Below, in pieces: positions 3,447 through 58,192 of a stretch of 64,000 nt of DNA. Position 1 is the first letter of the stretch; each line of letters begins with the position of its first letter. This DNA is from Nitrosotalea sp. (GTDB taxonomy: Archaea; Halobacteriota; Syntropharchaeia; Alkanophagales; Methanospirareceae), in assembly GCA_020725315.1 (NCBI GenBank), contig DYFG01000001.1, forward strand, positions 17,015 through 81,014. The letters are read 5' to 3'. The notes under the pieces are model-generated. The model made no database searches and had not been told where the DNA came from. It saw only the letters and a list, made by a program, of their open reading frames with translations. The translations under genes and the position numbers were made by a program.

Positions 3447-4397
3447 ATGTCAGTAGTTCCGTACAAAAAGAAAGATACTGCACTAGAAGTCCTGCTAGGC
3501 TCTCTAGACTCTATGTCATCTAGGGTGGCCTACAAGGGGGCAGTTACCTCATTTATCCGTTGGTATCAGCAGACAGGGCAGGCAGACGCCTATCGTGGTG
3601 TGCTGGCGTGGAAGGCGTATATGCGAGACGATCTAGGGCTTGCAGCAGCTACTATCAACGCCAAGCTGTCGGCGGTGCGTCGTTACTTTGCTACGGCAGC
3701 GTCCCTTAACCTGATTGATGCACGTATGGCTACTGCTATTCAGGGGATTGGGAACGTTGCCAGCGAAGGAAAACGTCTTGCCACGTGGCTTAGCAAAGAG
3801 AAGGCGACCGAGCTTCTTAACCTGCCTGATGTAGAAACTCCTACAGGTAGTCGAGACTACGCTATCCTGAGTTTGTTGGTAGGCGTGGCCCTTCGTCGTG
3901 GAGAGCTAATTTCTTTGACCTGGGGGCAGTTTGAGAAAGTAGAAGATAGTGGTGGAGTGTTTTGGATCATCCGTGATCTCCGCCGCAAGCGAAATCGTAC
4001 TCAATCAATCCCCGTACCAGGGTGGACGATTGATGCCCTGCTCCATTATGCCAGTTTTTTACCAGAAGATAAGAAAACTTTTAACGGTCGCGTGTTCTTG
4101 TCTTACGTGAATAATGAGTGGGGAAACTCAATCTCTGAGAAAGCAATCTATAACATTGTCTCGCAGTACGGAGAGAAGTTGGGTGTGCCAGAACTTGCCC
4201 CTCACGACCTTCGCCGTACCTGGGCGGCACTAGCTTATAAAGGGAATGCTGATCTACTAGCTATTCAGGAAACGTTGGGACATTCAAATATTGAAACGAC
4301 CCGTCGTTATCTAGCTGAACTTTCTGTATTTGAAAATGACTCAGTGTATAAAACTGGGCTTGACAACCCGAACAGAAGCTTGTACAATGATAGTTGA
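3447..4397 (+). CDS. int: tyrosine recombinase / phage integrase family protein
   Basis: C-terminal catalytic region APHDLRRTW ... LGHSNIETTRRYL (H-x-x-R ... Y). Strong RBS GAAAGGAG upstream of the ATG. Confidence 0.85.
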   Translation: MSVVPYKKKDTALEVLLGSLDSMSSRVAYKGAVTSFIRWYQQTGQADAYRGVLAWKAYMRDDLGLAAATINAKLSAVRRYFATAASLNLIDARMATAIQGIGNVASEGKRLATWLSKEKATELLNLPDVETPTGSRDYAILSLLVGVALRRGELISLTWGQFEKVEDSGGVFWIIRDLRRKRNRTQSIPVPGWTIDALLHYASFLPEDKKTFNGRVFLSYVNNEWGNSISEKAIYNIVSQYGEKLGVPELAPHDLRRTWAALAYKGNADLLAIQETLGHSNIETTRRYLAELSVFENDSVYKTGLDNPNRSLYNDS

Positions 4398-18699: not shown

Positions 18700-18989
18700 T
18701 AGACTAATCTTTCTATTAAAATAGCTACCGTACTTGCTGCTAGTATATATAAAACAGGTGGGAAAATGAAATAGGTAAGCGTACAAAGAAGAGCAACCCA
18801 CACGCTTAGGCACCAAAAACAGGAAAACAGTTCTCCTACAAAGTTGTCAGGATATTCTGTTACCTCTAACGTACTATCCCACTTCCCACCTGCCAGCCGC
18901 CTAACAAAACGGGCAATACCCTCTCGATGAATAATACTTGTTAGACGCCACGTAGCTAATGCTACTATCAAAGCATCTAACGATTCCAT
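18699..18989 (-). CDS. small membrane protein with CxxC (FSCFWCLSVW)
   Basis: 96 aa, one or two hydrophobic segments, CFWC motif. Confidence 0.35.
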   Translation of the reverse strand: MESLDALIVALATWRLTSIIHREGIARFVRRLAGGKWDSTLEVTEYPDNFVGELFSCFWCLSVWVALLCTLTYFIFPPVLYILAASTVAILIERLV

Positions 18990-21829
18990 TTCTTAACCGC
19001 TTCACGAATCTGTGCCAGCCGAGAATCACCAATTCCCTTAATCGAAAGAAGTTCTGCATCAGACGCTTGCGACACCTGAAAGATATGGGTGTAATTCCGC
19101 CCCAAAATCGTAATTACTTCTTCCGGCAGGTCTAGCTGGTCAATCTTTGCAGTATGAACGTCCTTCTGAGCAGACGGCTCTTTGAGAACTTCGTTAGTTG
19201 GCGCTATAGGGGCCTCTTCCTGTTTAATGGTAACTGTTTGTGCAGGTCTGTGAGGCTGCTCCTCTGCCAAAACCAAATCCGGCGAAGACGTGAGCCATTC
19301 TACATCTTCAGGAAATACATTAATGAGTGTATCAACCCCACCAATCCGATACGTAACCCCCCTGTGTGATCGAGAAGGAATACGCCGAAATTGTTTTTGC
19401 TTGCCTACATAACGTAGTGTAACCATCGAATCCCCCGATACTACAGACATAGTTTTAATAGTTGTACTTTTAGGAACAACCACAGTGGACTTCTTTCCAC
19501 CACAGCTTTTGCACATATCATTTCCTTTTAACACATCAGAAATTAAATTAGCAAATTTATTACGTACATATTGTACCAAAGATGATGATTTTTCAAAATT
19601 ATCCTCGCGCCGCATCCCGCTTTTCATGTTGTAGTAGAATAGTGGAGAGGCAATTCTTGTACCACAAATGCCCCTCTCCAACAGGGAAAGATGGAAAATC
19701 CAATCTTCCCAACCGGGAGCCTTTTGATCAAACCCCACTGCTTGCACATCTGCCGTTCTGTAAATGCCCGTAATAGCAGAAATGCTTTTACGAACTAGCC
19801 GTTCAGAACTCCACTCTTCAGACGGTTGTTTAACTAATGTGCCGTTATTATCTTTGTATAGCCAGTCAGAATAGTACCAACCACAATTACTCCCCTCTAT
19901 AGCAGCCAGGAAAATGTCTATTGCTTGTGGTTCTAATAGATCATCAGCATCCAAGAAAACAATATATTTCCCTCTTGCTGCCATAATCCCCTCATTACGA
20001 GCTTCGGCTACCCCACTGAGTTTGCCCTTATCAATAAGGGTCACAAAAGGAAACCCATTTAAATAATAGTCTAAAGGCTCTCCGGTATCATTAACAACTA
20101 TTACTTCCCATTCTTCATTGGTTTGGGCCAGCAGACTATCCAAAGCCCCCTGCAAATAAGGACCATGCTTAGGTCCAACAGGGATTACAACCGATACTTT
20201 TGGATCAGAGTAGGCGGCTATTGGATAGCCAAAACCTTCATACTCAGTTGCTCCGGCAGGCATCAGTAAATCATTCTTACGCCAGGGAAACCAAGCCGTC
20301 CAATCCTCTCCCTGATTACTGTTACTTAAAGACTCTCTACGAATCCTATACAACAAGGTAGGATTTGAAGTAACCTGCTTTGCAGTACAGTTATATGAAA
20401 GTGCCCTCGTCCAAAAATCCGCATCTTCTACCCCGGTTCTAATTCTCCGCCGATACCCCCCAACAATCTCCCATACCTTACGACGATACATACTAGAATA
20501 CATCAACTGGTTACGCCGATTTAGTTGTTGTCGCAGACTTGTAGTAGCAGGGGGCCATTGTGAAACAAATGTCTTTCCTGTTTCATCAAACACCTGCATA
20601 GCCCCATATGCAATAGAGAGGGAACGATCCTCGTCAAGTGCCTTAGAAAGAATTTTAACCGCACCAGGAGCAAGACGATCATCGGCGTCTAAGGGTAGAA
20701 TATATTTTCCTTTTGCTGCACGAATACCTATATTCCTGGCTTCTGCTACATGAACATTTTGTTCTAACGCAATTAAACGAATCTTATCTTTATAAGACTC
20801 TATAATTTCTAATGAGTTATCCGTAGAAGCATCATCCACTACAATCACTTCCCGATCCTCTTGTTCTAGAGCAGAATCAATAGCCTCTCCTACAAACTTT
20901 CCGAGGTTGTGATTGGTAATGATGATGGAAGTTTTGACTTCCGGTTTGTTGCTTATAGCTTCTTCGTACACAGTTCCATATTCTAAAGCAACGTCCTTCC
21001 ACTGATAACGATCTATAACTACCTGCCGAGCCGCTGCTCCTAGTCTTTCACGATGTTCGTAACAATATCTAATACCACGAATCATATCTCCGAAGGAGTC
21101 TGCTACATAGCCCGTTTCTTTGTGGACAATTACCTCAGCAGTTCCCCCATCATTCCATGTCAGTACAGGTACCCCACAAGCCATTGCTTCCAACACACCG
21201 AAACAAGGGCCACCTGTTTCTTTGGCAGTGGCGAGATAAACTGCTGCCCCTTGTACCAGCCTCTTCATTTCTTGTGGAGTCTGTTTGCCAACTACTTTAA
21301 CATTAGGGGCCTTATTTCCAAACGTAGTAACAAAAGTAGTTCCTGGAAAATGAGTTGCTAAGTCATTTACGATCTTTGGATCGCAAGCTATATCTGCCCT
21401 AGCTTTATTCCACAACACATAGCGCCCATTCTCTCCTGGTACCCACTCATCTGTATCTATGCCATGATGAACCAACCGAGGAGAGAATAAGAAATTCCTC
21501 TCTATGGCATACTGTACCCAACGAGAAGGGACCGTTACCAAGTCTGCCATACGGAAAGCATCAATGATACTTCTATTTAAATGTGCGGTCCACCTTGCCC
21601 ATCCCGGTTGATCTTTCGTCCAGTATAGTCCATGATTGCTTAGAACAATAGGAATATCTTTTGGATAAGAAGCTGGAAAGTTTGCTATATGAACATTTAG
21701 TACATCTGCTTTAAACGGATCATCAACTACCTCAATTCCCACACGCGGGAGCCAAGTGTGCTGTCCTTGTATGACACGATAAATACCGTCATTACCGTTC
21801 GGTATAGAGGGGGAAATATAAACCTTCAT
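18977..21829 (-). CDS. multi-domain glycosyltransferase: GT4-like N-domain, two GT2 domains, C-terminal HhH-like tail
   Basis: GT4 motif ETGGPCFGVLEAMACGVPVL. First GT2: IIITNHN..EVIVVDDASTDNS..LPLDADD. Second GT2: VSVVIPVG..EVIVVNDTGE..FLDADD. C-terminal LLSIKGIGDSRLAQI. Confidence 0.8.
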   Translation of the reverse strand: MKVYISPSIPNGNDGIYRVIQGQHTWLPRVGIEVVDDPFKADVLNVHIANFPASYPKDIPIVLSNHGLYWTKDQPGWARWTAHLNRSIIDAFRMADLVTVPSRWVQYAIERNFLFSPRLVHHGIDTDEWVPGENGRYVLWNKARADIACDPKIVNDLATHFPGTTFVTTFGNKAPNVKVVGKQTPQEMKRLVQGAAVYLATAKETGGPCFGVLEAMACGVPVLTWNDGGTAEVIVHKETGYVADSFGDMIRGIRYCYEHRERLGAAARQVVIDRYQWKDVALEYGTVYEEAISNKPEVKTSIIITNHNLGKFVGEAIDSALEQEDREVIVVDDASTDNSLEIIESYKDKIRLIALEQNVHVAEARNIGIRAAKGKYILPLDADDRLAPGAVKILSKALDEDRSLSIAYGAMQVFDETGKTFVSQWPPATTSLRQQLNRRNQLMYSSMYRRKVWEIVGGYRRRIRTGVEDADFWTRALSYNCTAKQVTSNPTLLYRIRRESLSNSNQGEDWTAWFPWRKNDLLMPAGATEYEGFGYPIAAYSDPKVSVVIPVGPKHGPYLQGALDSLLAQTNEEWEVIVVNDTGEPLDYYLNGFPFVTLIDKGKLSGVAEARNEGIMAARGKYIVFLDADDLLEPQAIDIFLAAIEGSNCGWYYSDWLYKDNNGTLVKQPSEEWSSERLVRKSISAITGIYRTADVQAVGFDQKAPGWEDWIFHLSLLERGICGTRIASPLFYYNMKSGMRREDNFEKSSSLVQYVRNKFANLISDVLKGNDMCKSCGGKKSTVVVPKSTTIKTMSVVSGDSMVTLRYVGKQKQFRRIPSRSHRGVTYRIGGVDTLINVFPEDVEWLTSSPDLVLAEEQPHRPAQTVTIKQEEAPIAPTNEVLKEPSAQKDVHTAKIDQLDLPEEVITILGRNYTHIFQVSQASDAELLSIKGIGDSRLAQIREAVKKWNR

Positions 21830-21831
21830 AG

Positions 21832-22518
21832 CTAGCCTACATCGGGAGCGACAGAGTTAAGCGAATAGTCCATACCTATGTTCTTAAAGGGAGAACATTG
21901 AAAATGAAAGGGCATATTACCAGGCCACAAGATTTCGGGTGCGTTATGCGTGTCGTTATACCGTTTGCACATTTCTAGTTCTTCTTCACCAGGAGAGACA
22001 CCTTCTTGATGGTATCCCACGCTGTTGTAAAACCGTTCATGCCGGAAAGAACACTGACCGGAATAGACATAGACACCTGATCCTTGTTCTAACTTTAGGT
22101 ATGTCATGCTACTATACCCAACAAACGACGCTTTCATATCCGTAGACAGGTATCCACAACGAATTATACCAACAGACGGCTGTGTTAACAAAGTGTCTAC
22201 ATAAGGATCAACATTAAGCGGCTCTACTAATACCCAATCATCTTCTGTCATAAAGACTATTGGCGAAACTAAAAACGCCTGCTTTAGTGCTAGGTTCTTC
22301 GATACACCCACCCCACGACGATTCGCATTTGTAACAATAACCCTCTCTTGTGTGTCTATCAAAGAGGTTAGCTGATCGACATACCCATCAGGACTACCAT
22401 CATCAGCAATAATCCATACCCGGTTCCCATATTTTAGGTTCTCTTTCAAAGAGAGCAAAGTTTGGGTAGCTGTGTGTAACCGATTATATGTTGTGATAAT
22501 AATGCTTAGAGGTTCCAT
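21832..22518 (-). CDS. family 2 glycosyltransferase
   Basis: SIIITTYNR ... WIIADDGSPDGY ... TEDD. Confidence 0.7.
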   Translation of the reverse strand: MEPLSIIITTYNRLHTATQTLLSLKENLKYGNRVWIIADDGSPDGYVDQLTSLIDTQERVIVTNANRRGVGVSKNLALKQAFLVSPIVFMTEDDWVLVEPLNVDPYVDTLLTQPSVGIIRCGYLSTDMKASFVGYSSMTYLKLEQGSGVYVYSGQCSFRHERFYNSVGYHQEGVSPGEEELEMCKRYNDTHNAPEILWPGNMPFHFQCSPFKNIGMDYSLNSVAPDVG

Positions 22519-24579
22519 CTATACTCCATATAAAGCGTGTGTCGTGTCCAACATCTCTAGCAGTTCTTTGGCAGACAAAAACCTGCTAGGTTTGTCGCTG
22601 GTATACGAAAACGGCGCACTCTCGTTCCTAAATGAAGACGTGGGTGGGTGGATAAGATAGAAATTACCCTTATCTTCTGTATAAAAGGATTCCGCCTCGC
22701 TAACCATTCCTTCATGGATTTTTTCGCCAGGACGCAAACCTATATCCACTATTGCTAAATCTTGTGCGAACTCCTTAGCAAAATCAATCATTAAAATACT
22801 AGGAGCCTTTGGAACCAATATAACTCCCGGCTCGGTTTGTAGGGACATAAGGACTTGATTAATGGCTTCATCTATTGACAGAAAGAAACGAGTCATACGA
22901 CGATCTGTGATTGTAATCGGTCCACCAACCTTAGCCTGATGTTCCCACAAAACTGCCACAGACTGATTAGAAGCCAGCACGTTACCATAACGAGTAATAT
23001 GGAAACTGGTAGCTCCATACTTATTAGCATCTTGAAACACATACTCTACCATCTTCTTGCCAACACCATAGGCGTTTTCAGGCGAACAATTATGTACTAC
23101 CACACTACCCGACACAAAAGTATGCGTATCTTCTACGTCAATACAATATACATCTCTTGATGGAGCTTTATATTCATTAAGAATGGGAGTATCTATATAA
23201 CGTTCTGCTGTTCCTAAATCCCAAAAAGTAGGATCGTAATCTATATAGTCAATTTTATTAGACATTTCAGGCAATATTCCTGGTCTAATAAAATTGAATA
23301 GAGATTGAGTACCCTCAACAGTAAATCTAAGTTCAGGATAATATTTTCCGGCTACTTTAACTAATAAATAATTACACTCAAATCCCCTGTTTGTTAAAAA
23401 CTCACATAACCAAATAACTTCTTCCTCAGTAAACCCATGAGTAGCTAGACGCGCAGATGGTCTAGAGTTCCCCCCGTTATTATGACTAATACATCCATCA
23501 TCCATAAACCAAGCTGCCATAAGATAGGGAGAAAAATATTTTTCTAGTAAATGCTTGGGAACTATTTTCGCTTTATCCGAATAAAATGCCTCTCTTAGGT
23601 TTCCTAGTGTTGCATAGGCTCTGGAAGAGGATTTACAGAAATTATTTTTTCCCTTTTTACTTCTCGTTTTAATTTCGCTAAAAGTAAACCCCCGCAGGGC
23701 TGCTGTTTTCGTTTCTAGCCACTGTCGTTGTCTCTCCGAATGACCAATAGTCAGCCGACTGCGGCGACTTTGTGTTAGGCTGCTATCGCCTAATAAAGTA
23801 CCTACAAGTAGTCCATACTGTTTAAAGTTTGGTTCTGGTTCATTAGTTATTATAAAATGATTGTCTGTTAAACTACCGGCAGGAATCCATCCTTTGGTTG
23901 TCAGAATAAGATGATCTTCTGTAACTATAGTACCAGACAACTTACCCACATGCAGATATGCTCTACGGTAAGTAAGTCTATATCTTTTCCTGCCATCCAA
24001 TTTATTTTTGTACCACCCCACCACTCGCCCTAACTTCTGTTCCCCCGTATTAGGATCAATAGTAACTACTTCGCCATCATAACGTTCTTTAACCAACTCG
24101 CCTATTGGCTTAGAGGTTCCGTCTGCCAACAAAACCCTAGCGTGCCAATCAAGACAGGCTTTGTCGGTGCTTGTCGTAACGACCTGAGACACTCCCATAT
24201 CAATTGCGGCCTCAACAACCTGCTGAGAACCGTAGATATTTGTTTCTATCGTAGCAGCAATGTTGTTTTGAGCAGAGGGTACCTGTTTATAGGCAGCAAA
24301 GTGCATTACTATGTCAACACCGCGCATGGCCCGTTTGAGATCATTATAACGAGTTATGTCTCCCAACACATATTGGTGTTCAGGAAACTTTTGACGAAGG
24401 ATGCTTTGCTTTGTTTCGTCACGCGAAAAAATTACAAACTCTGCTCCCCAAGAATTTCGTCGGGCGCGAGTAAGCACAGCCTTTCCGAGAGTACCCGTTC
24501 CGCCAGTAATTAGTATTTTTTTACCTTCCAACATCTTCCCGTAAGGATCAGAATTTGTTATCCAGGTTTCCATCATCAT
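22519..24579 (-). CDS. NAD-dependent NDP-sugar 4,6-dehydratase/epimerase (CapD/PseB-like) interrupted by an intein
   Basis: Rossmann motif ILITGGTGTLGKAV. Catalytic region STDKA then intein then CSPENAYGVGKK, corresponding to STDKAxNPxNxYGxTK. 686 aa in total, of which 356 aa is intein. Confidence 0.75.
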   Translation of the reverse strand: MMMETWITNSDPYGKMLEGKKILITGGTGTLGKAVLTRARRNSWGAEFVIFSRDETKQSILRQKFPEHQYVLGDITRYNDLKRAMRGVDIVMHFAAYKQVPSAQNNIAATIETNIYGSQQVVEAAIDMGVSQVVTTSTDKACLDWHARVLLADGTSKPIGELVKERYDGEVVTIDPNTGEQKLGRVVGWYKNKLDGRKRYRLTYRRAYLHVGKLSGTIVTEDHLILTTKGWIPAGSLTDNHFIITNEPEPNFKQYGLLVGTLLGDSSLTQSRRSRLTIGHSERQRQWLETKTAALRGFTFSEIKTRSKKGKNNFCKSSSRAYATLGNLREAFYSDKAKIVPKHLLEKYFSPYLMAAWFMDDGCISHNNGGNSRPSARLATHGFTEEEVIWLCEFLTNRGFECNYLLVKVAGKYYPELRFTVEGTQSLFNFIRPGILPEMSNKIDYIDYDPTFWDLGTAERYIDTPILNEYKAPSRDVYCIDVEDTHTFVSGSVVVHNCSPENAYGVGKKMVEYVFQDANKYGATSFHITRYGNVLASNQSVAVLWEHQAKVGGPITITDRRMTRFFLSIDEAINQVLMSLQTEPGVILVPKAPSILMIDFAKEFAQDLAIVDIGLRPGEKIHEGMVSEAESFYTEDKGNFYLIHPPTSSFRNESAPFSYTSDKPSRFLSAKELLEMLDTTHALYGV
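23089..24156 (-). mobile_element. intein with LAGLIDADG homing endonuclease inside the dehydratase gene
   Basis: Starts CLDWHARVLLADG (block A) and ends VVVHN followed by +1 Cys. LAGLIDADG-type motifs LLVGTLLGDSSL and LMAAWFMDDGCIS. Confidence 0.6.
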
Positions 24580-24648
24580 TCCTTATACAACAAAAGGGGT
24601 TACTGTAATAATAGTATCACAGTAACCCAATCTTGTCAAGTATTTATT

Positions 24649-25833
24649 TTATTGTCCGTGAGTCCAGGTAGTATATCCCATCCCCTTACCTGGGGGGCCT
24701 ATCGTAGTCTCAAAATCTGTACCTGCGTAGTAGTTCACTACATAAGGAATCCACATATCATCCCCACTTACAGGGAACTTGAACACTGGATCGTTTTGGC
24801 TAGCCTCTCCCAAACCATACACCATATTAAGTGCGCGAACAATTGCATTATCTCCTGCGTCAAAAGGCAACAAACCTGCTCGATGAAGAATGACAGCGGT
24901 TACAACAAGTCCTTGCAAACCTTCATGCATGTAACCGGACTTTGTGGGGGGCCATTTAAATTCCCCTCCCCTTCGCCAGTCTTCGGGCAAGACTCCACTC
25001 ACAGAAACGCCGTTGATAGTAGAGCCTTTTCGGTTTATTCCTGCCTTATTATCAGGATCAGCGTGCCACGTTGTGTTATCGTATTTAAATTTAGGATCGG
25101 GCACAGGCAGCCCTATCATTTCCTTTTGTGCATTAACCACGTCTTCTTTCCAATCGTCACGATCTAAATAGATAGCGGCAGCAGCCAAACTTGCCCTTGC
25201 ATGTGCTCCCCAATTAGTCGCAGAATACAGGGCAGTTCCATACAACCCACTATCCCCTGGGGCAGAATGGTCAGGAATACCTGCTACAACTACTTCAGCC
25301 AACCACTCTTTAAAATCTGACTCAGTATACCCTATCAGATCAGCCGCTATTACGTAAGACTGCAATCCTCTAGACAGTTCCAACGAGCGATCAAGGCTGC
25401 TTTGCATAGCGGATCGCAAACCTTCTACAACCTTGTTTCGCATATTAGCATCTTCTAGACGAACGGCTACCAAAGCGCCTGCCAGAGTCTTTACATCGTG
25501 CTGACTATTATTATCCGCTAAATCAGCCCTTCCCCAATTGCTGTTAGCGGCCTCAAGAACCTGTTCCCAAGCTTTGCCCTCTGTAGGAAGCGCCATAATT
25601 TCTTCGGTAGACAACCAAATTCCCTCAGAAGTACCAGGAACTTCCGGTTCTTCGTCAGGCGGTTCTTCGTCAGGCGGAAGTTCTGGAATCTCATTCAACA
25701 CATCTTCAATTGCAGTTACCCGATCTTCCAACCCCCTAACAGACGACTCTATTCTAGTTAGCGCCGCATCAATCTCGTCTAGCAAACTATTAATACGTTC
25801 AAATTCTTCTTCAGGAATTTCGAACAGTCCCAT
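24649..25833 (-). CDS. putative polysaccharide lyase / glycan-modifying enzyme. N-terminal coiled coil and acidic PPDEEP repeat (start probably ATG at 25833, MGLFEIP)
   Basis: 394 aa from the internal start, which has GGGAG 9 nt upstream. The C-terminal domain has a weak alginate-lyase or heparinase-like look. Low certainty. Confidence 0.3.
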   Translation of the reverse strand: MGLFEIPEEEFERINSLLDEIDAALTRIESSVRGLEDRVTAIEDVLNEIPELPPDEEPPDEEPEVPGTSEGIWLSTEEIMALPTEGKAWEQVLEAANSNWGRADLADNNSQHDVKTLAGALVAVRLEDANMRNKVVEGLRSAMQSSLDRSLELSRGLQSYVIAADLIGYTESDFKEWLAEVVVAGIPDHSAPGDSGLYGTALYSATNWGAHARASLAAAAIYLDRDDWKEDVVNAQKEMIGLPVPDPKFKYDNTTWHADPDNKAGINRKGSTINGVSVSGVLPEDWRRGGEFKWPPTKSGYMHEGLQGLVVTAVILHRAGLLPFDAGDNAIVRALNMVYGLGEASQNDPVFKFPVSGDDMWIPYVVNYYAGTDFETTIGPPGKGMGYTTWTHGQ

Positions 25834-25907
25834 TACACAATCTCCCACAATCCCTACTACCAACAATATATACATTATATCAAAAGTATCGCAGGCACTA
25901 AAGACTC

Positions 25908-25936
25908 TTGACAAATCCTAATTTTGCGCTTATAAT
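25908..25936 (+). promoter_or_regulatory. consensus sigma70-type promoter, TTGACA-17 nt-TATAAT, driving the + strand moron operon
   Basis: TTGACA at 25908-25913, 17-nt spacer, TATAAT at 25931-25936. RBS AAGGAACGGG and ATG at 25960 follow. An AGACTC extension precedes the -35. Confidence 0.55.
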
Positions 25937-34445: not shown

Positions 34446-35178
34446 GAACTTCTACCTTACTAAATGTATATGGGCTTTCTGCTTCATGATCTAAACAAAC
34501 AACACAATTTTCCGCCGAAGGATTTACGTTCCAATAAACGTAATAATTATCCTCATCTTCATCTACTTCCAACCAGCATTTGCACAACGATTTTCCAAGA
34601 CAGTCGTCACCTGGGAGATAAGGCATCATAAAAGTAATATCGACAGGAATAGTGCCCGCTATAAACGGTGCTCTGGCATACCCATACAGAGAAGAACGCC
34701 ACTGTAGACGACCACTATAAATTACTCCGCTAGACAACGCCTCACGAATGTCTGCCTCAAATCCATCGAAGTATTCATATTCCCTCTCTAAACGCTGTTC
34801 TAAGATTTCCCTGTGCCGTTCAGTAAATTCCTCTCCTTGCAAACCCAACAGCATAAGATCAGAAAAATGGATACGCAGACGATCTCTAAACCGCTCCGAA
34901 AATTCCCTTATTGATAAGGCTCCCGACAAAACAGCGACCAGCAATTCCTGAAATTCTTGGGATGCCTCTTCACAAAGTTCTTCGTATTCCTGTTCGTCCC
35001 GCTCATCATACTGCTTCTTTCCTTTACCAGCAGCATGTATGCACGCGAAAATAGCCTCTTCTTCAGACCCGCCATCTCTCAAAACCGCATTAGCGGCTCT
35101 GATACAACGTTTCTTTTCTGAGACTGTCCAATTCTTAGCAACTTTTGGCACGTAATTGGGATAACGATAGGGACTCAT
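34429..35178 (-). CDS. hypothetical head morphogenesis protein with C-terminal Cys cluster
   Basis: 249 aa, directly after portal. C-terminal CxxC...C..C (CLGKSLCKCW ... CVVC). Confidence 0.3.
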   Translation of the reverse strand: MSPYRYPNYVPKVAKNWTVSEKKRCIRAANAVLRDGGSEEEAIFACIHAAGKGKKQYDERDEQEYEELCEEASQEFQELLVAVLSGALSIREFSERFRDRLRIHFSDLMLLGLQGEEFTERHREILEQRLEREYEYFDGFEADIREALSSGVIYSGRLQWRSSLYGYARAPFIAGTIPVDITFMMPYLPGDDCLGKSLCKCWLEVDEDEDNYYVYWNVNPSAENCVVCLDHEAESPYTFSKVEVHGLTT

Positions 35179-37736
35179 TTCGTAACCAACTCACTTACTA
35201 TCCTACGCGCTTCTTGTATGTCTTTAGCAGTTATTTTTTTGTAGCCCTTCCTCTCAGTATGAGAATCAATGCCACCAACAATCTGATCTGTTCCAAAGGT
35301 AATTTCACTCGGCTGCTCCGTAGGCTGCGAAGATAAACGAGATTCGATCTCAGGTATCATCCATTCTGGTATATCACCTGACTCAACCGCCAACTGCCTT
35401 GCAGCAATCGCATCAATCTCTCCACTACGAACTAACAAAGCACGTTCTTTAGCTCTAATAAATCTCGCCTCTGCCCGTTCCCTGTCAGACCGAATATCCT
35501 GTTCCTTAAACTCAAACCGAACATTATAAGGAAGATGAGAATTTATCTTATCTTCCAACATCGTCATAATCAGGGCAGGGCCTTTACCCCTCGTCTTGAG
35601 ATGGAGAATTTCAGACTGTCCAGATGATCCAAGATTACCGGACATGAGTGGGGCAAACTCTTGATAATCCACACCAAAAGCAAGCGCCAACTGTGCTATA
35701 TACCATTTAAAGGTTGTGTCTTCGTTAAACGAATCTGGTAATGTTGCCAGATCAATGTGAACGTGACTGAGTGGGTGAGTAGGATCAACCCCAGGAATAA
35801 TCACTGGTTGCGAAAAACGATATAAACCACGATTAAGGTTTTGTTCTTCTGCCAGCAACACCGCATCATCAATGTTTGATTTTGATACGCCACCGATAAT
35901 ATCAATGGCGCGAGTAAAGTTGCCGCCTACCTTTTCTTTCTTATAGATGGAAATGTCTCTAAGAATTTGGGCGGCGAGTAGGGCACGGGATGTAGCACAA
36001 TATTGCATGCCATACATTTCTTCGATGGGAGAAGGAAACTCTTCTAACGTTTCTACTCTCCACCAGGGCATTGCATGCTCTCTACCATAAAAGTCTCTAT
36101 AAATAACTGGATATTCTGGATCACCAGTTCGCCAACAACGTCCTGAGTCCAGGTGTGCAAAATTAATCACAGGAGAAGTAGGGTTATTATTATCAACCCT
36201 AATAATTTCCCAAAAGGCGCCATTATCCTGTGTGTTGTGAGAAACAAGATTTCCAGCAATAAAATTGCGAGTTTTGTCTACTCCAATATGATAGGTGGTT
36301 TCTACAACCTTCCCGGTTGCTCCTATATAGTCTTTCTGTTCTATTTTTTCAATTTCATCAAAGTAGATTTTTGCAGGTTCCAACTCCCACACAGAAGGAT
36401 TAAATGGTTTTGTGTGTTGTCCCATCTTATACTGCATAGACGGAATTATATATTCGCTGATATAGGACACCACTGCACGATAACCATCGGCAGTGAAACG
36501 AATCCTATAATACTTGTCCTTTATCGGTTGCACCTTACAAGAAAAACCACGCGAGGTAAGTTCCTCAGCAAGCCATTCAACATCTTCTTTTTCAAATCCA
36601 TCTGTGCATAAAACAGCGTGTTCTGATTGATTGTTTGCTGTGGTAAGTGTTCTCTGGCACGCCCCGTCATCCATAAACCATATTGCAAGCATACGGGGAG
36701 AGAAGTATTTCACAAAGTCTTCCCTATTAACTCGCTTCTTCCCGTCTGGATACCATCTATCAAACCAAGGAGATAGCCCCAAAGAAGCTAGCGAGTTTAC
36801 TCCTATGATGTGTGCTCCTTTTTCTGTGAGCCTAGAATTTTGCCCTGTCCAACCAAACTCTTTTAACAAAGACTTCTTAAATTCTAGATAATCAGACTGA
36901 TCAACAGAGTGTCTAAAGCGGATAATTGCTCTCTTGGTAAAACGAGACATACTCATATCCCCAAGCAACCCGCCCACAAGTACCTCTGCCTGTTCTTCTG
37001 AAGGAACAAGATCAGAAGTACCTATCTTATCAGTAGGTAGCAAGTCTTTAGCTTGTACCCAACCACGATCAGTTAGCATGGGATGATCTTCAGTTAAAAA
37101 GATTCCTCCTTGCTTTCCTCCATGACCATGATTAGTTGCTAGTTTAGTAGACAGGAAATACCATTTACGATTCCCTAGTGGCGTAGAATGCCATTCAGTA
37201 ACCATCTGTTCTACCAAAGTTCCGTCAGAACCAACGCTAATCACAGGACCAGGATCACGATCCTTTACCATTCTTGCTATCGTCTTTGTTTTTCCTAGTC
37301 GATCCCCCCCTAGCTTAACTTTAGTATTACCAGCCAAGCAATAGAGGTCAATACAAGTTTTAAGAATTAAATCGTACCACCCCTTACCACGATTTGATCG
37401 CTGGATAATCTCAGTAACCTTGTTAATTGTATTTTTAGGTCGCGGTTTAGTCTTGTCTGTGCCTTCAATATGCCACGCAAAACTGGCGTTACGAATTGAA
37501 ACACCATAAACCGCGCTTGCCAAAAGGGACTCTGTGTGCCAAAATTCCCGTAATTCCCTATCTCGTTTAACAGGATCTTTGCCCCAGGGCGTAATTGAAT
37601 CGGCAGTTGTCGCCAGTTGTAAAATCAAGGGGCCAACACGCGGCGTCCTGTTATTAGGCGGCGTCTCAACAACAGAGTTTTCAAAAAGCTCTGGTAACAA
37701 TTCTTTTTCTTCTACAAAATCACTACCGACTGCCAT
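35175..37736 (-). CDS. portal protein interrupted by an intein
   Basis: 853-aa gene immediately downstream of, and overlapping, the large terminase gene. The roughly 484-aa extein is portal-sized. The intein is at residues 133-501. Confidence 0.6.
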   Translation of the reverse strand: MAVGSDFVEEKELLPELFENSVVETPPNNRTPRVGPLILQLATTADSITPWGKDPVKRDRELREFWHTESLLASAVYGVSIRNASFAWHIEGTDKTKPRPKNTINKVTEIIQRSNRGKGWYDLILKTCIDLYCLAGNTKVKLGGDRLGKTKTIARMVKDRDPGPVISVGSDGTLVEQMVTEWHSTPLGNRKWYFLSTKLATNHGHGGKQGGIFLTEDHPMLTDRGWVQAKDLLPTDKIGTSDLVPSEEQAEVLVGGLLGDMSMSRFTKRAIIRFRHSVDQSDYLEFKKSLLKEFGWTGQNSRLTEKGAHIIGVNSLASLGLSPWFDRWYPDGKKRVNREDFVKYFSPRMLAIWFMDDGACQRTLTTANNQSEHAVLCTDGFEKEDVEWLAEELTSRGFSCKVQPIKDKYYRIRFTADGYRAVVSYISEYIIPSMQYKMGQHTKPFNPSVWELEPAKIYFDEIEKIEQKDYIGATGKVVETTYHIGVDKTRNFIAGNLVSHNTQDNGAFWEIIRVDNNNPTSPVINFAHLDSGRCWRTGDPEYPVIYRDFYGREHAMPWWRVETLEEFPSPIEEMYGMQYCATSRALLAAQILRDISIYKKEKVGGNFTRAIDIIGGVSKSNIDDAVLLAEEQNLNRGLYRFSQPVIIPGVDPTHPLSHVHIDLATLPDSFNEDTTFKWYIAQLALAFGVDYQEFAPLMSGNLGSSGQSEILHLKTRGKGPALIMTMLEDKINSHLPYNVRFEFKEQDIRSDRERAEARFIRAKERALLVRSGEIDAIAARQLAVESGDIPEWMIPEIESRLSSQPTEQPSEITFGTDQIVGGIDSHTERKGYKKITAKDIQEARRIVSELVTK
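36234..37340 (-). mobile_element. intein with LAGLIDADG homing endonuclease in the portal gene
   Basis: Block A CLAGNTKVKL. Ends NLVSHN with +1 Thr. Motifs LVGGLLGDMSMS and MLAIWFMDDGACQ. Confidence 0.55.
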
Positions 37737-40476
37737 TTATGTATTTCTCCCCCAACTCAGGGAATTTCTGCCGGACTATTTGTGAGAAGGTTTCCAACTC
37801 AATTTCACCCTTTGCTAACATCTGTAGTAAATCTTCCTTCTCAAATTCCCGATTGTCTAATTCCAATTCCATACATTTGTAAGCAGCCATCGACAAAGCA
37901 ACTGCCGCGTCAATCTTGGCTTCTGGTGACAGCTTTTCTAGGCGTCTTTGCCGTCCCGAAATTACTGCCCCGGCTTGCCGAATATGCTGATATAGCGTAT
38001 CTTCTTCTCTCCCAGGACCCCCCACATCCCCGATTGTAGTGGTTCGATTCCAAGTCAGTTGTCGGTGCATCACCATGTCATAAAGCTGTTTGTCAGCAAT
38101 ACCTCGCGCCGTATTTTGAGTGAAAGGATCGAACCAACCAAACCCATCCTTACGATAGTCTTGAACAAGTTTTGCCATCTGGTACGGATCATAAACCCAA
38201 CATATAACATTCCATCGGGAAGCCCATTCACGAATGGTATTACCAACTGTCTGTTCTTGGTCTATGTTACCACCTAACTTTTTAGGATTAAAAATCTTTA
38301 CAGCCCGAACCGCAACACAAGTATCAGGGTTGATTGGATCGCGAGTTACAGCAACCATCGCCGCTAAGTCATTTGATACACTCATATCTATTGCAACCAC
38401 AACAGGAGTCTTATCTCCCTGCTTAAGAACGGGCAAAGAAGGACTTTCACAATTATCCCACCATTGAGCCTCGATAAACGCACCCTTCGCACTCACCCAA
38501 CGATTACGATGGATACGTTCAAACTCCTCTGGTTCTAAGGTATTTTTCTGTTCTTCATAGTAATTAGTACCTAATTGCCAGGGCATCCGAGGTTCGGTGT
38601 CCCAATACATAAACATACGAGAAGGCGCATGAGTATAAACCACTGGACCTTCTTCAGTATCAAGATAGGAAAAATCTGGATGGGGAGTTCCTTCTTTCTT
38701 TCCTGTGTTATAAAGAGATTCTAAAAGAATGGACACTCCGGTATATCCTGCATAGGATTCAACCCACTGCATTGCATATCCGTACAAAGTGGGCGGAACC
38801 GTAAGTTCTGTCCATAGCTGGCGTTTCTTAGGTGTATCAAATCCCCACAACTCACTGTTGCCCTGGATATGTACTTTTCCGTGTCGTCTAACTACTACAG
38901 TTTTGTTAGGTACTGTAGGACAGTGGATAATCCCTTCATAGTCTATCTTTTGCCAACGATCTTTTTTAATGTGAAGTATACGGCTCCCATCCCCCATTGG
39001 CTTAACACTAACTGAATATAAAGGCCTTCCCCATCGCCTATCTTGATAGGTAGTTACTGTTACATATCTGCCCCGCCTAGCATAAATTTCTAACAAATCG
39101 TCTCGCAATTTAGGAGAGTTTGTGCTATAAACAATATGCCCGTATTGAGTTACAGCATCACCAGTCTTGTATCCATCCCCACGCCAATAAGACTCTAATA
39201 ACACGTCTAAATATTCATCTGGAAGTTCTTTAATCCATGCCGGTATATACTTTTCGTGTGCCAGCCCAAATTGCTTTAAATGTTTCGCTATACGAGTATC
39301 ATAAAACACTAAAGCATCTGTACCCTTCCACACACGCGGAACATATCCGAGATCGGAGATTAGCGTTTTCAATTCTTCGTAATAAGGAGATACACTGCTC
39401 TGTGCTAACAACACGGTATCGCCCTTATGGGTACATCCCTCAGACAAATACCACCCCAAAAACTTAAGGTACAGTTTTACAGGAATCTCAAGACTCGGCC
39501 TACGCTTAGTGCCTGGAATAGTCACAAATTCTGGTACATCTACTGGTTTCCTTTTTAGTCCCAAAGATTCTACTCGCATACCATACACCCCGGCTTCTAT
39601 GGCGGATTCTACGGAGCGCTTTTCAAATTGGGCTTTATTAAGGGCTATAGAACTAGAACCAAATTTACCATACAGCCTATGATTAGGAGACACGCACAAA
39701 CTGTATCTGCTAGATTCTAATAGATACATAGGGCCTCCATACTGTGAGACATTTATATGAGTGGGATGTTGGTACTCTAGATACCCATCCGAACGTAAAG
39801 TTAAAAACTGATCATCCATAGAATATTGATCATAGCGTTTCCACCCATCCCTAGTAAGTATCTCTGTGTCTTCGTCAAAACAAAAGACACTTAGCGTAGG
39901 TTCACCACCAGCCTCACCTGCCGCGTCAACCGGAACAGCCTCAATCTTACAAAAATTAGGAAGGGTAACCTCGTATTCATACGGGTTTATATCCTTAAAG
40001 GGGCCTTGTTGCTGTCTATGGAGTCTATAATTTTGTTTTATAGGCGCATAGATACGGTCGTTCGCCTGTTTACCATCGTTTGCTACACACGCAATAAACC
40101 CATAAGGACTATGATGAGCCACATAAGTAGCTACTGCCGCAGCAACCGCAGACTTTCCGCTTTTCTTTGGGGCACTATAAACTACCAAAGCATACTTAAA
40201 TGTCCCATCAGGATTCCGTGATAGGGCTTCATTAATCAAATGCTTTTGGTGATCGGTTAATTGAATCGGGCCAGCGGGAAGTATTTCGCCAGTCTTAGGG
40301 TTTCGAGGTCGAGGTACCCAAAAATATCGTTCAATCCAATCAGCCGGAAGAATTGCTTCCTGATTCTGTTCTTGCACTAAGTTGCGTGACAACTGCCGTA
40401 GTGCCTGATCCAGCAGCGTCTTCGAGTCGCCTTGAGATGTAATCGACAACTGCTTCCCTAACGTGTGCATCATCAA
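37723..40476 (-). CDS. terminase large subunit interrupted by an intein at the Walker B region
   Basis: Walker A VVYSAPKKSGKSAVAAAV. The intein starts at C199 (TLSVF then CFDEDTEILTRDGW). 917 aa including a roughly 342-aa intein. Lies upstream of portal. Confidence 0.8.
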   Translation of the reverse strand: MMMHTLGKQLSITSQGDSKTLLDQALRQLSRNLVQEQNQEAILPADWIERYFWVPRPRNPKTGEILPAGPIQLTDHQKHLINEALSRNPDGTFKYALVVYSAPKKSGKSAVAAAVATYVAHHSPYGFIACVANDGKQANDRIYAPIKQNYRLHRQQQGPFKDINPYEYEVTLPNFCKIEAVPVDAAGEAGGEPTLSVFCFDEDTEILTRDGWKRYDQYSMDDQFLTLRSDGYLEYQHPTHINVSQYGGPMYLLESSRYSLCVSPNHRLYGKFGSSSIALNKAQFEKRSVESAIEAGVYGMRVESLGLKRKPVDVPEFVTIPGTKRRPSLEIPVKLYLKFLGWYLSEGCTHKGDTVLLAQSSVSPYYEELKTLISDLGYVPRVWKGTDALVFYDTRIAKHLKQFGLAHEKYIPAWIKELPDEYLDVLLESYWRGDGYKTGDAVTQYGHIVYSTNSPKLRDDLLEIYARRGRYVTVTTYQDRRWGRPLYSVSVKPMGDGSRILHIKKDRWQKIDYEGIIHCPTVPNKTVVVRRHGKVHIQGNSELWGFDTPKKRQLWTELTVPPTLYGYAMQWVESYAGYTGVSILLESLYNTGKKEGTPHPDFSYLDTEEGPVVYTHAPSRMFMYWDTEPRMPWQLGTNYYEEQKNTLEPEEFERIHRNRWVSAKGAFIEAQWWDNCESPSLPVLKQGDKTPVVVAIDMSVSNDLAAMVAVTRDPINPDTCVAVRAVKIFNPKKLGGNIDQEQTVGNTIREWASRWNVICWVYDPYQMAKLVQDYRKDGFGWFDPFTQNTARGIADKQLYDMVMHRQLTWNRTTTIGDVGGPGREEDTLYQHIRQAGAVISGRQRRLEKLSPEAKIDAAVALSMAAYKCMELELDNREFEKEDLLQMLAKGEIELETFSQIVRQKFPELGEKYINGSR
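38857..39882 (-). mobile_element. intein in the terminase large subunit gene (homing-endonuclease-like insert; non-canonical C-terminal GN-S junction inferred)
   Basis: Block A CFDEDTEILT. Candidate end VHIQGN then Ser. Internal LKFLGWYLSEG and WRGDGYKTGD motifs. The exact C-terminal boundary is uncertain. Confidence 0.45.
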
Positions 40477-43448: not shown

Positions 43449-44780
43449 GGTGACTGCTCCCCACGGCTAAAGCCGGGGGCTTCTAGGACCGGAGTCCAGG
43501 CTCGCCAGCCCGCGAGCCAAAATGTTCAGAGATGCATTGAGATCGCGGTCCAGTTTCAGGCCGCAGTAAGGACAGTCGTGGACACGCACACTCAAGTCTT
43601 TCGGAACCACCGCGCCGCAGCCGGAGCATTCTTGCGTTGTGCCTCTGGGGTTAACGCGCAGCACAGCACGACCGGCACTTTCAGCCTTGTACGTGGTGAA
43701 CTGCACGAACTGGCCCCAGGCCACGTCCGCGATATTCCGGTTGACAACCCGGTTTCCGTTGGACTGCATGTCCGCGATGTCCAACTTCTCAAAGACGATC
43801 AGGCCGAAGCGGTTGACGAGCTTGCGGCTCTCCTGGTGCGCGAAGTCGGCGCGCCGGTTGGTGGCGCGCTGGTAGGCATGGTTGAGCGCGCGCAGCACCT
43901 TGCGGCGCTCCGGCGAGCCTTTAGCGAACTGTTCTTTCTTGCGCTGCAAGCGGGCGATGTCCGCCGCATCGCGTTTCATCCAGCACTGGCGCGGGATACT
44001 GTCGCCGGTACTCAGCATGGCGAACGTCTTCAGGCCGAGATCCACGCCCACCACTTCAGGCGACGGGGGCAGAGGCGCGGCGTCTACTTCGCACGAAAAG
44101 CAGGCGTACCAGTTGCCTACGCTATCGCGCCGGATGATGACTGTTTTGGGTGTGCCTTCCAGGGGGCGATGCAGCTTGATTTTCACGGCTCCGATTTTCG
44201 AGAGCGTGAGCCGGTTACCGTCCAACTTCACCCCATTACCACACTGCGGATAGGTGAAACTGTCGTACCAGCCACGTCCCTTGAAGCGCGGGTAGCCGGG
44301 CTTCTCACCTGCCTTGACGCGGCGAAAGAATGCCTGGAACGCCAGATCGACGCGTGTGCACGCTTCTTGAAGCGACTGCGAAAAGGCGTTATTGAGAAAT
44401 GGCTGCTCGGCTTTCCAGCCGGGGATCAGCTTAATCGTATCGAAGCGCGTCAGCGTTTCGCGGTTAATGTCCCAGGCATCGCGGCGCACTTCAAGCGTCG
44501 TGTTGTAAACCCACCGACAAGCATCCAATGCGCGCAGCAAGGCGGTGCGTTGGGCAGAAGTAGGAAAGAGGCGGTACTTGTAGGTCAATCGCATAGCCCG
44601 ATTATACCATTTATGCTACAGGTTCACAAACATATGGCGCACCTTATATCCCCCTGCCTTCAGGCAGAGGTTTTACGGCGCTTTTCCGATAAAGCTGAGT
44701 TCTCCCCAGGAGCATCATCACAACACGCCCAACAGGAAGCCCCACACACCGGACACTCTTCTACCACATCACAACTCAAC
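43440..44780 (-). mobile_element. IS200/IS605-family insertion carrying only tnpB (IS1341-like), GC-rich
   Basis: GC is about 60% or more against a roughly 45% backbone. Right-end hairpin near 43455-43480 (GGCTAAAGCCGGGGGCTTC). Left-end-side hairpin CCTGCCTTCAGGCAGAGG near 44655. Confidence 0.65.
43467..44594 (-). CDS. tnpB: TnpB (OrfB_IS605) RNA-guided endonuclease-family transposase accessory protein
   Basis: N-terminus MRLTYKYRLFPTSAQRTALLRALDACRWVYN. C-terminal zinc finger CSGCGAVVPKD...CPYCGLKLDRDLNASLNI. Confidence 0.9.
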   Translation of the reverse strand: MRLTYKYRLFPTSAQRTALLRALDACRWVYNTTLEVRRDAWDINRETLTRFDTIKLIPGWKAEQPFLNNAFSQSLQEACTRVDLAFQAFFRRVKAGEKPGYPRFKGRGWYDSFTYPQCGNGVKLDGNRLTLSKIGAVKIKLHRPLEGTPKTVIIRRDSVGNWYACFSCEVDAAPLPPSPEVVGVDLGLKTFAMLSTGDSIPRQCWMKRDAADIARLQRKKEQFAKGSPERRKVLRALNHAYQRATNRRADFAHQESRKLVNRFGLIVFEKLDIADMQSNGNRVVNRNIADVAWGQFVQFTTYKAESAGRAVLRVNPRGTTQECSGCGAVVPKDLSVRVHDCPYCGLKLDRDLNASLNILARGLASLDSGPRSPRL

Positions 44781-57117: not shown

Positions 57118-57268
57118 GGAGAAAATAACGTGCCTAACCATCAAGCGAAAGACGATCCCGACAATCTCTTCCCGATCCTATGTATTTATGACTGGTATGA
57201 CTAATCATACCTACCTCTGCACATTGGAAATGGTGTGCAGTATTGGGATGAAAGTAAAGGAGTGTACC

Positions 57269-58192
57269 ATGCCTAAGAAAAATTCGGTTGAACGGCGTAT
57301 CCTAGACACACTGATTAAAGCAGTCGAGTCTAGCGGATTGCTGCCCTGGCAACGTCCGTGGGTTGTTGCCCATCCTATCAATCTTGTGACATACAATGCT
57401 CACAAGTCCGAAGGCACACCGGAAGAAGTGTGTATTAAATACGGTTATAAGGGTATTAATCCCCTGCTCCTGTCACTGTCTGAATTTTCCAGCCCCTTTT
57501 GGTTTACCTACAAACAGGCTACCGATTTGGGGTGGCAAATCCGCAAAGGTGAGAAGTCTTCTTTCATCGTTTACTGGAACATTTTTGAGAAGACTGTCAC
57601 CGATGATGACGGGGATGATCGTATCGTTAAAATCCCGTTCCTTCGGTATTATAACCTGTTTAACGTAGAGCAGGCCGATCCTGCTGAGGGTAAAGAACCT
57701 GCCCCTATTCCTACGATTACAGATATTGATAAGACAGACCGCAAGCGTGATGATATTAAAGAACTACTTACAGCGTCATGGCTTGCGCCTACTACCTTTA
57801 AGGGTACACAAGCAGCGTACATCCCATCACAAGATCGGATCGTGATGCCCCCAGTGGATGCTTTTAAATCCTATGCTCATTTTTATTCGACGTGGGCGCA
57901 TGAGGCAGTGCATAGTACCGGACACATCGACCGACTAGGGCGAGAGGGTGTTGTTAATCCTTCATTGTTTGGTAGTGAGAAATATGGGTTTGAAGAGTTG
58001 ATCGCGTGTGTTGGTCAAGCGATGTTCTGTGCACGAGTCGGTGTGCAGAATGAGGACATGAATAAAAACGACGCAGCGTATCTCAAAAACTGGTTGCAAG
58101 TATTGAAAGATGATCCCCGCATGATCGTAAGGGCTGGATCACAAGCGCAACGTGCAATTGATTTTATCTTCGGTGACGACTCTCCCCGCTAA
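57269..58192 (+). CDS. ardC: ArdC-like antirestriction protein (ssDNA-binding N-domain plus zincin-like metalloprotease motif)
   Basis: C-terminal STWAHEAVHSTGH, matching the HExxH...TGH signature of ArdC/DUF1738. Start at the ATG after AAGGAG. 307 aa. Confidence 0.7.
   Translation: MPKKNSVERRILDTLIKAVESSGLLPWQRPWVVAHPINLVTYNAHKSEGTPEEVCIKYGYKGINPLLLSLSEFSSPFWFTYKQATDLGWQIRKGEKSSFIVYWNIFEKTVTDDDGDDRIVKIPFLRYYNLFNVEQADPAEGKEPAPIPTITDIDKTDRKRDDIKELLTASWLAPTTFKGTQAAYIPSQDRIVMPPVDAFKSYAHFYSTWAHEAVHSTGHIDRLGREGVVNPSLFGSEKYGFEELIACVGQAMFCARVGVQNEDMNKNDAAYLKNWLQVLKDDPRMIVRAGSQAQRAIDFIFGDDSPR

Follow-up and report, generated by a model that had tools for sequence, protein, structure and literature searches.

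Class-1 inteins such as PI-SceI (Sce VMA1), PI-PfuI, TliVMA, Mtu RecA, Ssp DnaB and Npu DnaE have in common a Cys1 nucleophile, a TxxH motif, a His-Asn terminus and a +1 nucleophile. In the endonuclease-bearing members PI-SceI, PI-PfuI and TliVMA, the Hint domain is split by a LAGLIDADG nuclease and the element lies at a conserved active-site motif of its host. Here we describe an insert with all of these features in a gene for a PseB-like nucleoside-diphosphate (NDP)-sugar dehydratase. The gene is carried on a 64,000-nucleotide stretch of contig DYFG01000001.1 (assembly GCA_020725315.1, positions 17,015 to 81,014; hereafter the window), which belongs to a phage lineage represented by syntenic contigs. 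In mechanistic terms the element is a textbook class-1 LAGLIDADG intein. It differs from the inteins named above in its host, a nucleotide-sugar dehydratase of the short-chain dehydrogenase/reductase (SDR) type where theirs are replication, repair or ATPase proteins, and in its nuclease, which is of the I-SceI/LAGLIDADG_2 type.

Among bacterial intein hosts, 61.5% fall into COG category L and 21.7% into category F (PMC4760082). Two surveys of phage inteins list terminase, portal, Cas4, helicase, primase, methylases, RNR, ThyX and others, with no carbohydrate enzyme among them (PMC5050341; 10.1101/2025.01.02.630785), and the 19 actinophage extein types of the 2025 survey likewise include no sugar or carbohydrate enzyme (10.1101/2025.01.02.630785). 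The archaeal UDP-glucose/GDP-mannose dehydrogenase (COG1004) carries 10 inteins (PMC4760082 Table 2; PMC2874743), which also interrupt an NAD-dependent nucleotide-sugar-converting enzyme. Compared by description rather than by sequence, they differ from the present case in enzyme family and insertion site, and they reside in euryarchaeal chromosomes, not in phages. An earlier note on this DNA had called a sugar-modifying host unusual. The survey figures speak for that view, but the host is not unique, given the archaeal dehydrogenase and about 28 clusters that share the insertion site (see below).

Literature searches retrieved no description of an intein in an enzyme of the PseB/CapD/FlaA1 type. 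A "nucleoside-diphosphate sugar epimerase" of Trichodesmium is said to carry inteins listed in InBase as "Ter Ndse", which we take only as an unconfirmed lead to a possible precedent; a literature search for "Ndse" gave no matches. The allele itself is already visible in public protein collections. Public names of its relatives vary from "nucleoside-diphosphate-sugar epimerase" to "intein/homing endonuclease", the latter being the label given to one relative by its source.

The Precursor Gene

The precursor open reading frame (ORF; 22519..24579, minus strand, as are all parts of the gene given below) encodes a protein of 686 aa and 77.4 kDa, and the frame is intact through all 686 codons. The product runs ...QVVTTSTDKA, continues with a 356-aa insert that begins CLDWHARVLLADG and ends FVSGSVVVHN, and resumes with CSPENAYGVGKK. 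The N-extein (aa 1-141; 24157..24579) contains the Rossmann motif GGTGTLG (24484-24504) and the catalytic S137-T138-D139-K140-A141 (24157-24171). The insert (aa 142-497; 23089..24156) comprises 1,068 nt, with a GC content of 0.383 vs. 0.436 in the exteins. The C-extein (aa 498-686 plus stop codon; 22519..23088) starts with the +1 Cys498 codon (23086-23088) and holds the catalytic Y504-G-V-G-K508 (23056-23070). The boundaries proposed in the earlier note (STDKA, 356 aa, residues 142-497) were thus reproduced to the residue from the ORF translation, as were the Cys start, the VVVHN end and the +1 Cys (C142, H496-N497|C498).

In public gene calls, the identical gene begins at its third Met (METW; window position 24573), two codons later, and encodes 684 aa; an exact look-up with the 686-aa product in public proteins found no match for this reason. 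An assembly chimera or artefact is excluded because the identical gene is present in two independent datasets, an 82,164-bp JGI metagenome contig and a Logan assembly, and a 97% variant occurs in a third.

Evidence That the Insert Is an Intein

In Pfam searches, the Polysacc_synt_2 domain of the precursor was found in two separated stretches (2e-66), and deletion of the insert fused these into a single stretch covering profile positions 1-291 of 293 (5.7e-73). The insert itself shows the expected blocks: block A, CLDWHARV, with Cys142 as the Cys1 nucleophile (24133..24156); block B, T220-E-D-H223, a TxxH motif (23911..23922); and blocks F and G (23089..23151), of which F reads VYCIDVEDTHTF and G reads VVVH496N497, with the penultimate His and terminal Asn. 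The LAGLIDADG_2 homing-endonuclease domain occupies aa 257-422 (23314..23811; 6.8e-24; PF03161, 85-87 bits vs. a cut-off of 25). Both LAGLIDADG-type motifs reported in the earlier note are present within it, LLVGTLLGD265SS (aa 257-267; 23779-23811) and LMAAWFMDD361G (aa 353-362; 23494-23523). Additionally, the NCBIfam model intein_Cterm (TIGR01443) scored 24.2 bits, over its cut-off of 15.6. Cys142, T220, D222, H223, H496, N497 and C498 are invariant in 25 full-length precursors that share 33-97% identity.

The insert, modeled by AlphaFold2 together with short flanking segments, gave a confident structure (pLDDT 87.6, pTM 0.85). Its top Protein Data Bank matches in Foldseek were the endonuclease-bearing inteins TliVMA (2.9e-13), PI-PfuI and PI-SceI, and it also matched the mini-inteins Mtu RecA, Ssp DnaB and Npu DnaE (target TM 0.6-0.77, probability 1.00). 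The Hint and LAGLIDADG signatures that the earlier note had asked to be searched for were therefore recovered both by hidden Markov models (HMMs) and by predicted fold. Sequence and modeled structure together confirm the insert as a canonical class-1 intein with a Hint fold and an I-SceI-like nuclease, which would be expected to splice. Two other assignments were considered and rejected: a free-standing endonuclease fusion, since Hint halves flank the nuclease, and a bacterial intein-like or hedgehog-type Hint domain, given the canonical HN|C terminus.

The element could also be a decayed intein that no longer splices, leaving the dehydratase a dead accessory gene. Loss is possible in principle for an accessory gene, and two general intein HMMs stay under their cut-offs. 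We regard this as highly improbable, as the 686-codon frame is intact, all splicing nucleophiles and assisting residues are present and invariant, the Hint fold is modeled with high confidence, and an intein relative on contig L021 clears the Pfam Intein_splicing cut-off (36.9 bits). The pN/pS ratio (nonsynonymous to synonymous changes) of the extein, measured against an intein-free allele described below, is 0.16, and by this measure the extein is under purifying selection.

Host Enzyme and Insertion Point

The best solved relative of the spliced extein is Helicobacter pylori FlaA1/PseB (2gn4), a UDP-GlcNAc 5-inverting 4,6-dehydratase, which shares GxxGxxG, [ST]DK and Yx3K with it. The two align at 1.7e-58 and contiguously, free of gaps over the junction (alSTDKAaNPiNlYGatK in 2gn4 vs. 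ttSTDKA|CSPENAYGVGK in the spliced extein). The reconstituted SDR/CapD Ser...YxxxK region foreseen in the earlier note is thereby borne out. The catalytic residues of FlaA1 are D132, K133 and Y141 (PMC5774825), and the dehydratase signature is [ST]DKxnYx3K (PMC8987622). In the 2gn4 alignment these residues correspond to D139, K140 and Y504 of the precursor, together with K508, so the intein lies one residue past the Asp-Lys pair and six residues ahead of the catalytic Tyr of Yx3K. S137, D139, K140 and K508 of the extein are invariant in the 25 precursors.

With PF02719 (Polysacc_synt_2) at 246 bits vs. a cut-off of 20.2, and with GGTGTLG, S137-T-D-K140 and Y504xxxK508 in place, the extein is predicted to be an NDP-sugar dehydratase of the Polysacc_synt_2/extended-SDR family. 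The NCBIfam PseB model covers 1-323 of its 324 positions once the insert is removed. We use the name PseB-like, as the extein scores below the PseB equivalog cut-off and, in a further difference from FlaA1/PseB, the window contains no PseC, PseH or PseI partners. Nor are DegT, NeuB or CTP-transferase genes found beside the dehydratase in the window. The same catalytic signature also fits the Pen-type 5,6-dehydratase and the CDP-glucose 4,6-dehydratase (PMC8987622).

Because 356 residues separate Asp139-Lys140 from Tyr504-x3-Lys508, the precursor enzyme is most probably inactive until spliced, as the insertion geometry and the analogy with other active-site inteins suggest. The AlphaFold2 model of the whole precursor has confident modules with a pTM of 0.53 and junctions with pLDDT <50; the arrangement of the modules is not fixed, and the model is uninformative on occlusion of the active site.

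An Intein-Free Allele and Probable Intein Mobility

A search with the spliced extein retrieved an intein-free protein of 328 aa (P0098) that is 97% identical and reads STDKA-A-SPESAYG at the site. When the 1,068-nt insert is removed from the window gene, the two alleles are 96.6% identical in nucleotides without an indel. Four consecutive differences fall exactly at the junction, GCC|TGT in the window vs. GCG|GCC in the P0098 allele, and exchange Ala for the +1 Cys. The empty-site sequence reads ...ACCGACAAAGCG|GCCTCGCCTGAAAGC..., and the empty allele on contig L006, around 2695, reads ...ACAAGCACCGACAAAGCG|GCCTCGCCTGAAAGCGCC... The earlier note had predicted that removal of residues 142-497 should restore a contiguous dehydratase, and this natural allele, which differs by exactly the insert, displays that state. 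Since the flanks on its contig are 95.6-97.8% identical to the window, we read the two loci as the same phage backbone with the site occupied in one and empty in the other, that is, as an occupied/empty homing-site pair.

None of the closest relatives of the extein, which share 62-67% identity with it and in many cases lie on 60-87-kb contigs, contains an intein, and the closest inteins (36-46% identity) sit in exteins that are only 34-58% identical. Such a discordance between intein and extein relationships is what horizontal acquisition predicts. The nuclease part of the intein matches I-SceI both by sequence (1e-11) and by fold (Foldseek, TM 0.70), and G264-D265 and D360-D361-G362 are invariant across the 25 precursors. 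We take D265 and D361 to be the equivalents of I-SceI D44 and D145. By profile and model, the nuclease is of the LAGLIDADG_2/I-SceI type with two motifs that each carry a catalytic acidic residue, in a pseudo-dimeric alpha-beta-beta-alpha-beta-beta-alpha fold, and it is predicted to be active. Together with the allele pair and its changed +1 codon, this makes it probable that the intein is still mobile.

Alternatively, splicing might have been retained while the endonuclease is dead, the intein being a vertical passenger and the intein-free alleles reflecting an older history or precise loss. In this direction points the divergence between close alleles, which is greater in the intein (97.4% nucleotide identity) than in the exteins (98.8-99.1%), with 17 nonsynonymous vs. 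10 synonymous codon changes (pN/pS about 0.5), most of them in the nuclease region. We nevertheless consider this unlikely, if a serious contender, for neither the two catalytic Asp positions nor the motifs around them vary among 25 alleles with identities as low as 33%, the empty site lies on a backbone that is 96-98% identical, and the intein and extein relationships are discordant.

The allele pair also bears on the possibility that the intein was co-opted as a conditional switch, for example as a Cys1/Cys+1 redox trap that turns on the dehydratase, and with it glycosylation, solely under particular conditions late in infection. The insertion at the active site and the Cys at both junctions would suit such a role, Cys498 being the sole cysteine of the ligated extein, and conditional splicing has been documented for other inteins (work cited in PMC4760082 and PMC7156551). 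This idea strikes us as quite improbable: the intein is missing from the 97%-identical allele and from all closest relatives and is hence dispensable for the cassette, which fits a selfish element better than a regulator.

Distribution of Inteins at the Dehydratase Site

A word-indexed search returned 27 clusters (at 90% identity) that combine Polysacc_synt_2 with LAGLIDADG_2, and every sequence among them that covers a junction has the same insertion point, S[ST]DKA|C...HN|C. When 1.84 billion representatives (at 50% identity) were searched exhaustively with a profile, about 28 showed the dehydratase junction; the wider intein family is very large, with 1,099 representatives reaching E<=1e-30 and many other exteins among its hosts. 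Besides the lineage of the window, the dehydratase-site intein was found in a different phage (P0027; 3,975-aa tape measure, SLT, NeuB, acetyltransferase) and on three IMG/VR viral contigs (L021, L022, L023), the first of which has the gene order large terminase (TerL), intein-bearing dehydratase, RmlD-like protein and 1,016-aa glycosyltransferase with GT4, GT2 and GT2 domains. A further copy (P0009) lies in a bacterial pseudaminic-acid-type cluster (DegT, NeuB, GNAT, CTP-transferase) with actinobacterial-looking neighbors. By these gene contexts, the intein occurs in several phages and at least one bacterial pseudaminic-acid-type cluster.

Four of the dehydratase-site inteins (P0013, P0020, P0025 and P0027; 406-427 aa) have an extra segment of ~45-60 aa ahead of block F that the window intein lacks; it has a zinc-ribbon-like CxRGH...CxxC spacing.

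Among 50,697 deposited phages, a megablast search with the gene gave no match, and tblastn gave only unrelated inteins (in DNA polymerase and RNA ligase) and a few partial dehydratase matches, the arrangement being present in none. A junction-pattern scan of 185,579 species-representative genomes, with a reach limited by the patterns used, found no dehydratase allele and only inteins of the same family in uracil-DNA glycosylase (UDG).

Related Inteins in Other Genes

The same intein family occurs in family-4 UDG and in RecA, with 25-34% identity over the full intein and E values down to about 1e-43. These inteins differ from the dehydratase intein in extein and in site, which reads ...NxxK|C...HN|CRPPGNR in UDG and ...MFG|C...HN|SPETT in RecA. 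UDG alleles were found in Nostocales, Actinomycetes and other genomes with the site pattern ...N(I/V)xK|C...VVHN|CRPPxNR. The loci are L009-L015 and L020 (Nostoc, Scytonema, Tolypothrix, Desmonostoc, Cyanosarcina) and L007 and L019 (Actinomycetes metagenome-assembled genomes). At the protein level, the start of the UDG C-extein (C-x-P-x..N) loosely resembles the dehydratase site (C-x-P-x-N).

Two more inserts lie in the window itself. A portal-like ORF (35175-37736 (-), 853 aa) contains a second LAGLIDADG_2 intein at about 36234-37340, with the junctions DLY|CLAGNTKV...NLVSHN|TQDNG and a +1 Thr. It is 34% identical to the dehydratase intein over the full length (E 1e-54), and by this similarity we regard it as a paralogue of the latter, the two residing in unrelated host genes of one phage. 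The third, intein-like insert (about 38857-39882) is in TerL (37723-40476 (-), 917 aa) at a Walker-B-like position. Its junctions read LSVF|CFDEDTEILT...KVHIQGN|SELWGFD, without a penultimate His and with a +1 Ser. The insert shares 29% identity with inserts in the gp3 "nucleotidyltransferase" of cluster C mycobacteriophages. The whole 917-aa TerL had no Pfam match at E<=1e-3.

A neighbor-joining tree (no support values) groups the dehydratase-site inteins into one clan, whose nearest neighbors are the portal intein and P0030 (unknown extein); the UDG and RecA clans are separate. This topology is compatible with the "extein switching" described in actinophage inteins (10.1101/2025.01.02.630785) and too crude to give a direction. 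Actinophage and mycobacteriophage inteins resemble the present one in being phage-borne, often of the LAGLIDADG type, sporadic, at active centers and extein-switching (PMC5050341; 10.1101/2025.01.02.630785). A joint reading of these observations would have an intein lineage hop between unrelated phage genes, phages ferry it between glycosylation cassettes and bacterial pseudaminic-acid-type clusters, and splicing perhaps time or gate virion glycosylation; taken as a whole, we find it decidedly unlikely.

Sugar Cassette and Phage Surroundings

The dehydratase stop codon is directly abutted by the start of a family-2 glycosyltransferase gene (GT2; 21832..22518 (-), 228 aa), which is followed by a gene for a three-domain glycosyltransferase, GT4 + GT2 + GT2 (18977..21829 (-), 950 aa). 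The cassette is positioned in the structural block, between head-side genes and tape-measure/tail genes. Giant GT4+GT2+GT2 fusions (935-1016 aa) adjoin the dehydratase near structural genes in several otherwise divergent phage contigs (e.g., L034, 14562-17369; L021, 13159-16209), and related phages often add an RmlD-like reductase and methyltransferases to the pair. In mycobacteriophages, phage-encoded glycosyltransferases are known to glycosylate virions (Freeman et al. 2023, as cited in PMC12619734). From its position and this precedent, virion-protein glycosylation would be the likeliest role of the cassette, and it is the part of our explanation that we hold least firmly. Tape-measure similarities point loosely to Gram-positive hosts.

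Upstream of the dehydratase, a 421-aa ORF of the window (24649-25914 (-)) is replaced on the contig of the intein-free allele by a 260-aa GT2 gene (L006, 1395-2262), a cassette swap inside the sugar module. A hairpin with a 14-bp stem followed by a T-rich run (24597-24628 (-)) lies between the upstream ORF and the dehydratase start and overlaps a promoter-like TTGACA-17-TACTAT; in promoter and terminator scans of the region, site counts were at chance level. Elsewhere, the window contains a family A DNA polymerase (74-1576), an integrase (3447-4397), an ArdC-like zincin protein (57188-58192) and two TnpB/IS605-OrfB genes with a Cas12f-like TNB domain (43467-44594 (-) and 58312-59760 (-)). No tRNA genes were found in it.

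Discussion

We propose that a class-1 LAGLIDADG intein in the active-site loop of a phage PseB/FlaA1-like dehydratase splices, homes and forms part of a sugar cassette, and we put the probability of this explanation as a whole at roughly 0.88. The gene would be translated as a 77-kDa precursor in which Cys142 performs an N-S acyl shift, Cys498 attacks to give a branched intermediate, and Asn497 cyclizes with the assistance of His496. The products would be the 40.7-kDa intein and a ligated dehydratase of 36.8 kDa with a Cys scar one residue past the Asp-Lys pair. In a mixed infection or upon encountering a prophage, the endonuclease would cut the intein-free allele, and in the course of repair both the intein and the +1 Cys codon would be copied into it. 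The dehydratase and the two downstream glycosyltransferases would act as a sugar cassette within the virion-structural block.

Several observations weigh against this explanation. Pfam Intein_splicing (PF14890), spanning 150-497, reached 26.1-28.9 bits vs. a cut-off of 35.8, and NCBIfam intein_Nterm (TIGR01445) 22.8 bits vs. 24.5, both with significant E-values. The intein pN/pS of about 0.5, obtained from the few substitutions between two close alleles, indicates relaxed constraint, and given this the nuclease could be decaying. Regarding the host enzyme, the extein scored 267.6 bits vs. the PseB equivalog (TIGR03589) cut-off of 407.75, and, unlike in relatives, no aminotransferase or 4-reductase gene stands next to the dehydratase in the window.

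The insert is a real intein of canonical type, and genes of the kind that it interrupts are rarely invaded; the type of element is well known and the host enzyme uncommon. Its position between the catalytic Asp-Lys and Tyr-x3-Lys of a nucleotide-binding enzyme agrees with the general preference of inteins for conserved nucleotide-binding active sites. In automated annotation, such genes are likely to be named after a single domain or recorded as fragments. The main value of the locus lies in a clean occupied/empty allele pair and in the presence of three inteins, including two paralogues, in a single phage, and the allele pair with and without intein is a ready system for studying homing, co-conversion of the +1 Cys and splicing-gated activity. 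With this finding, the few intein hosts outside replication, repair and packaging come to include a carbohydrate-modifying SDR enzyme, and the finding places the intein in a phage accessory cassette, where the persistence of selfish inteins is less expected.

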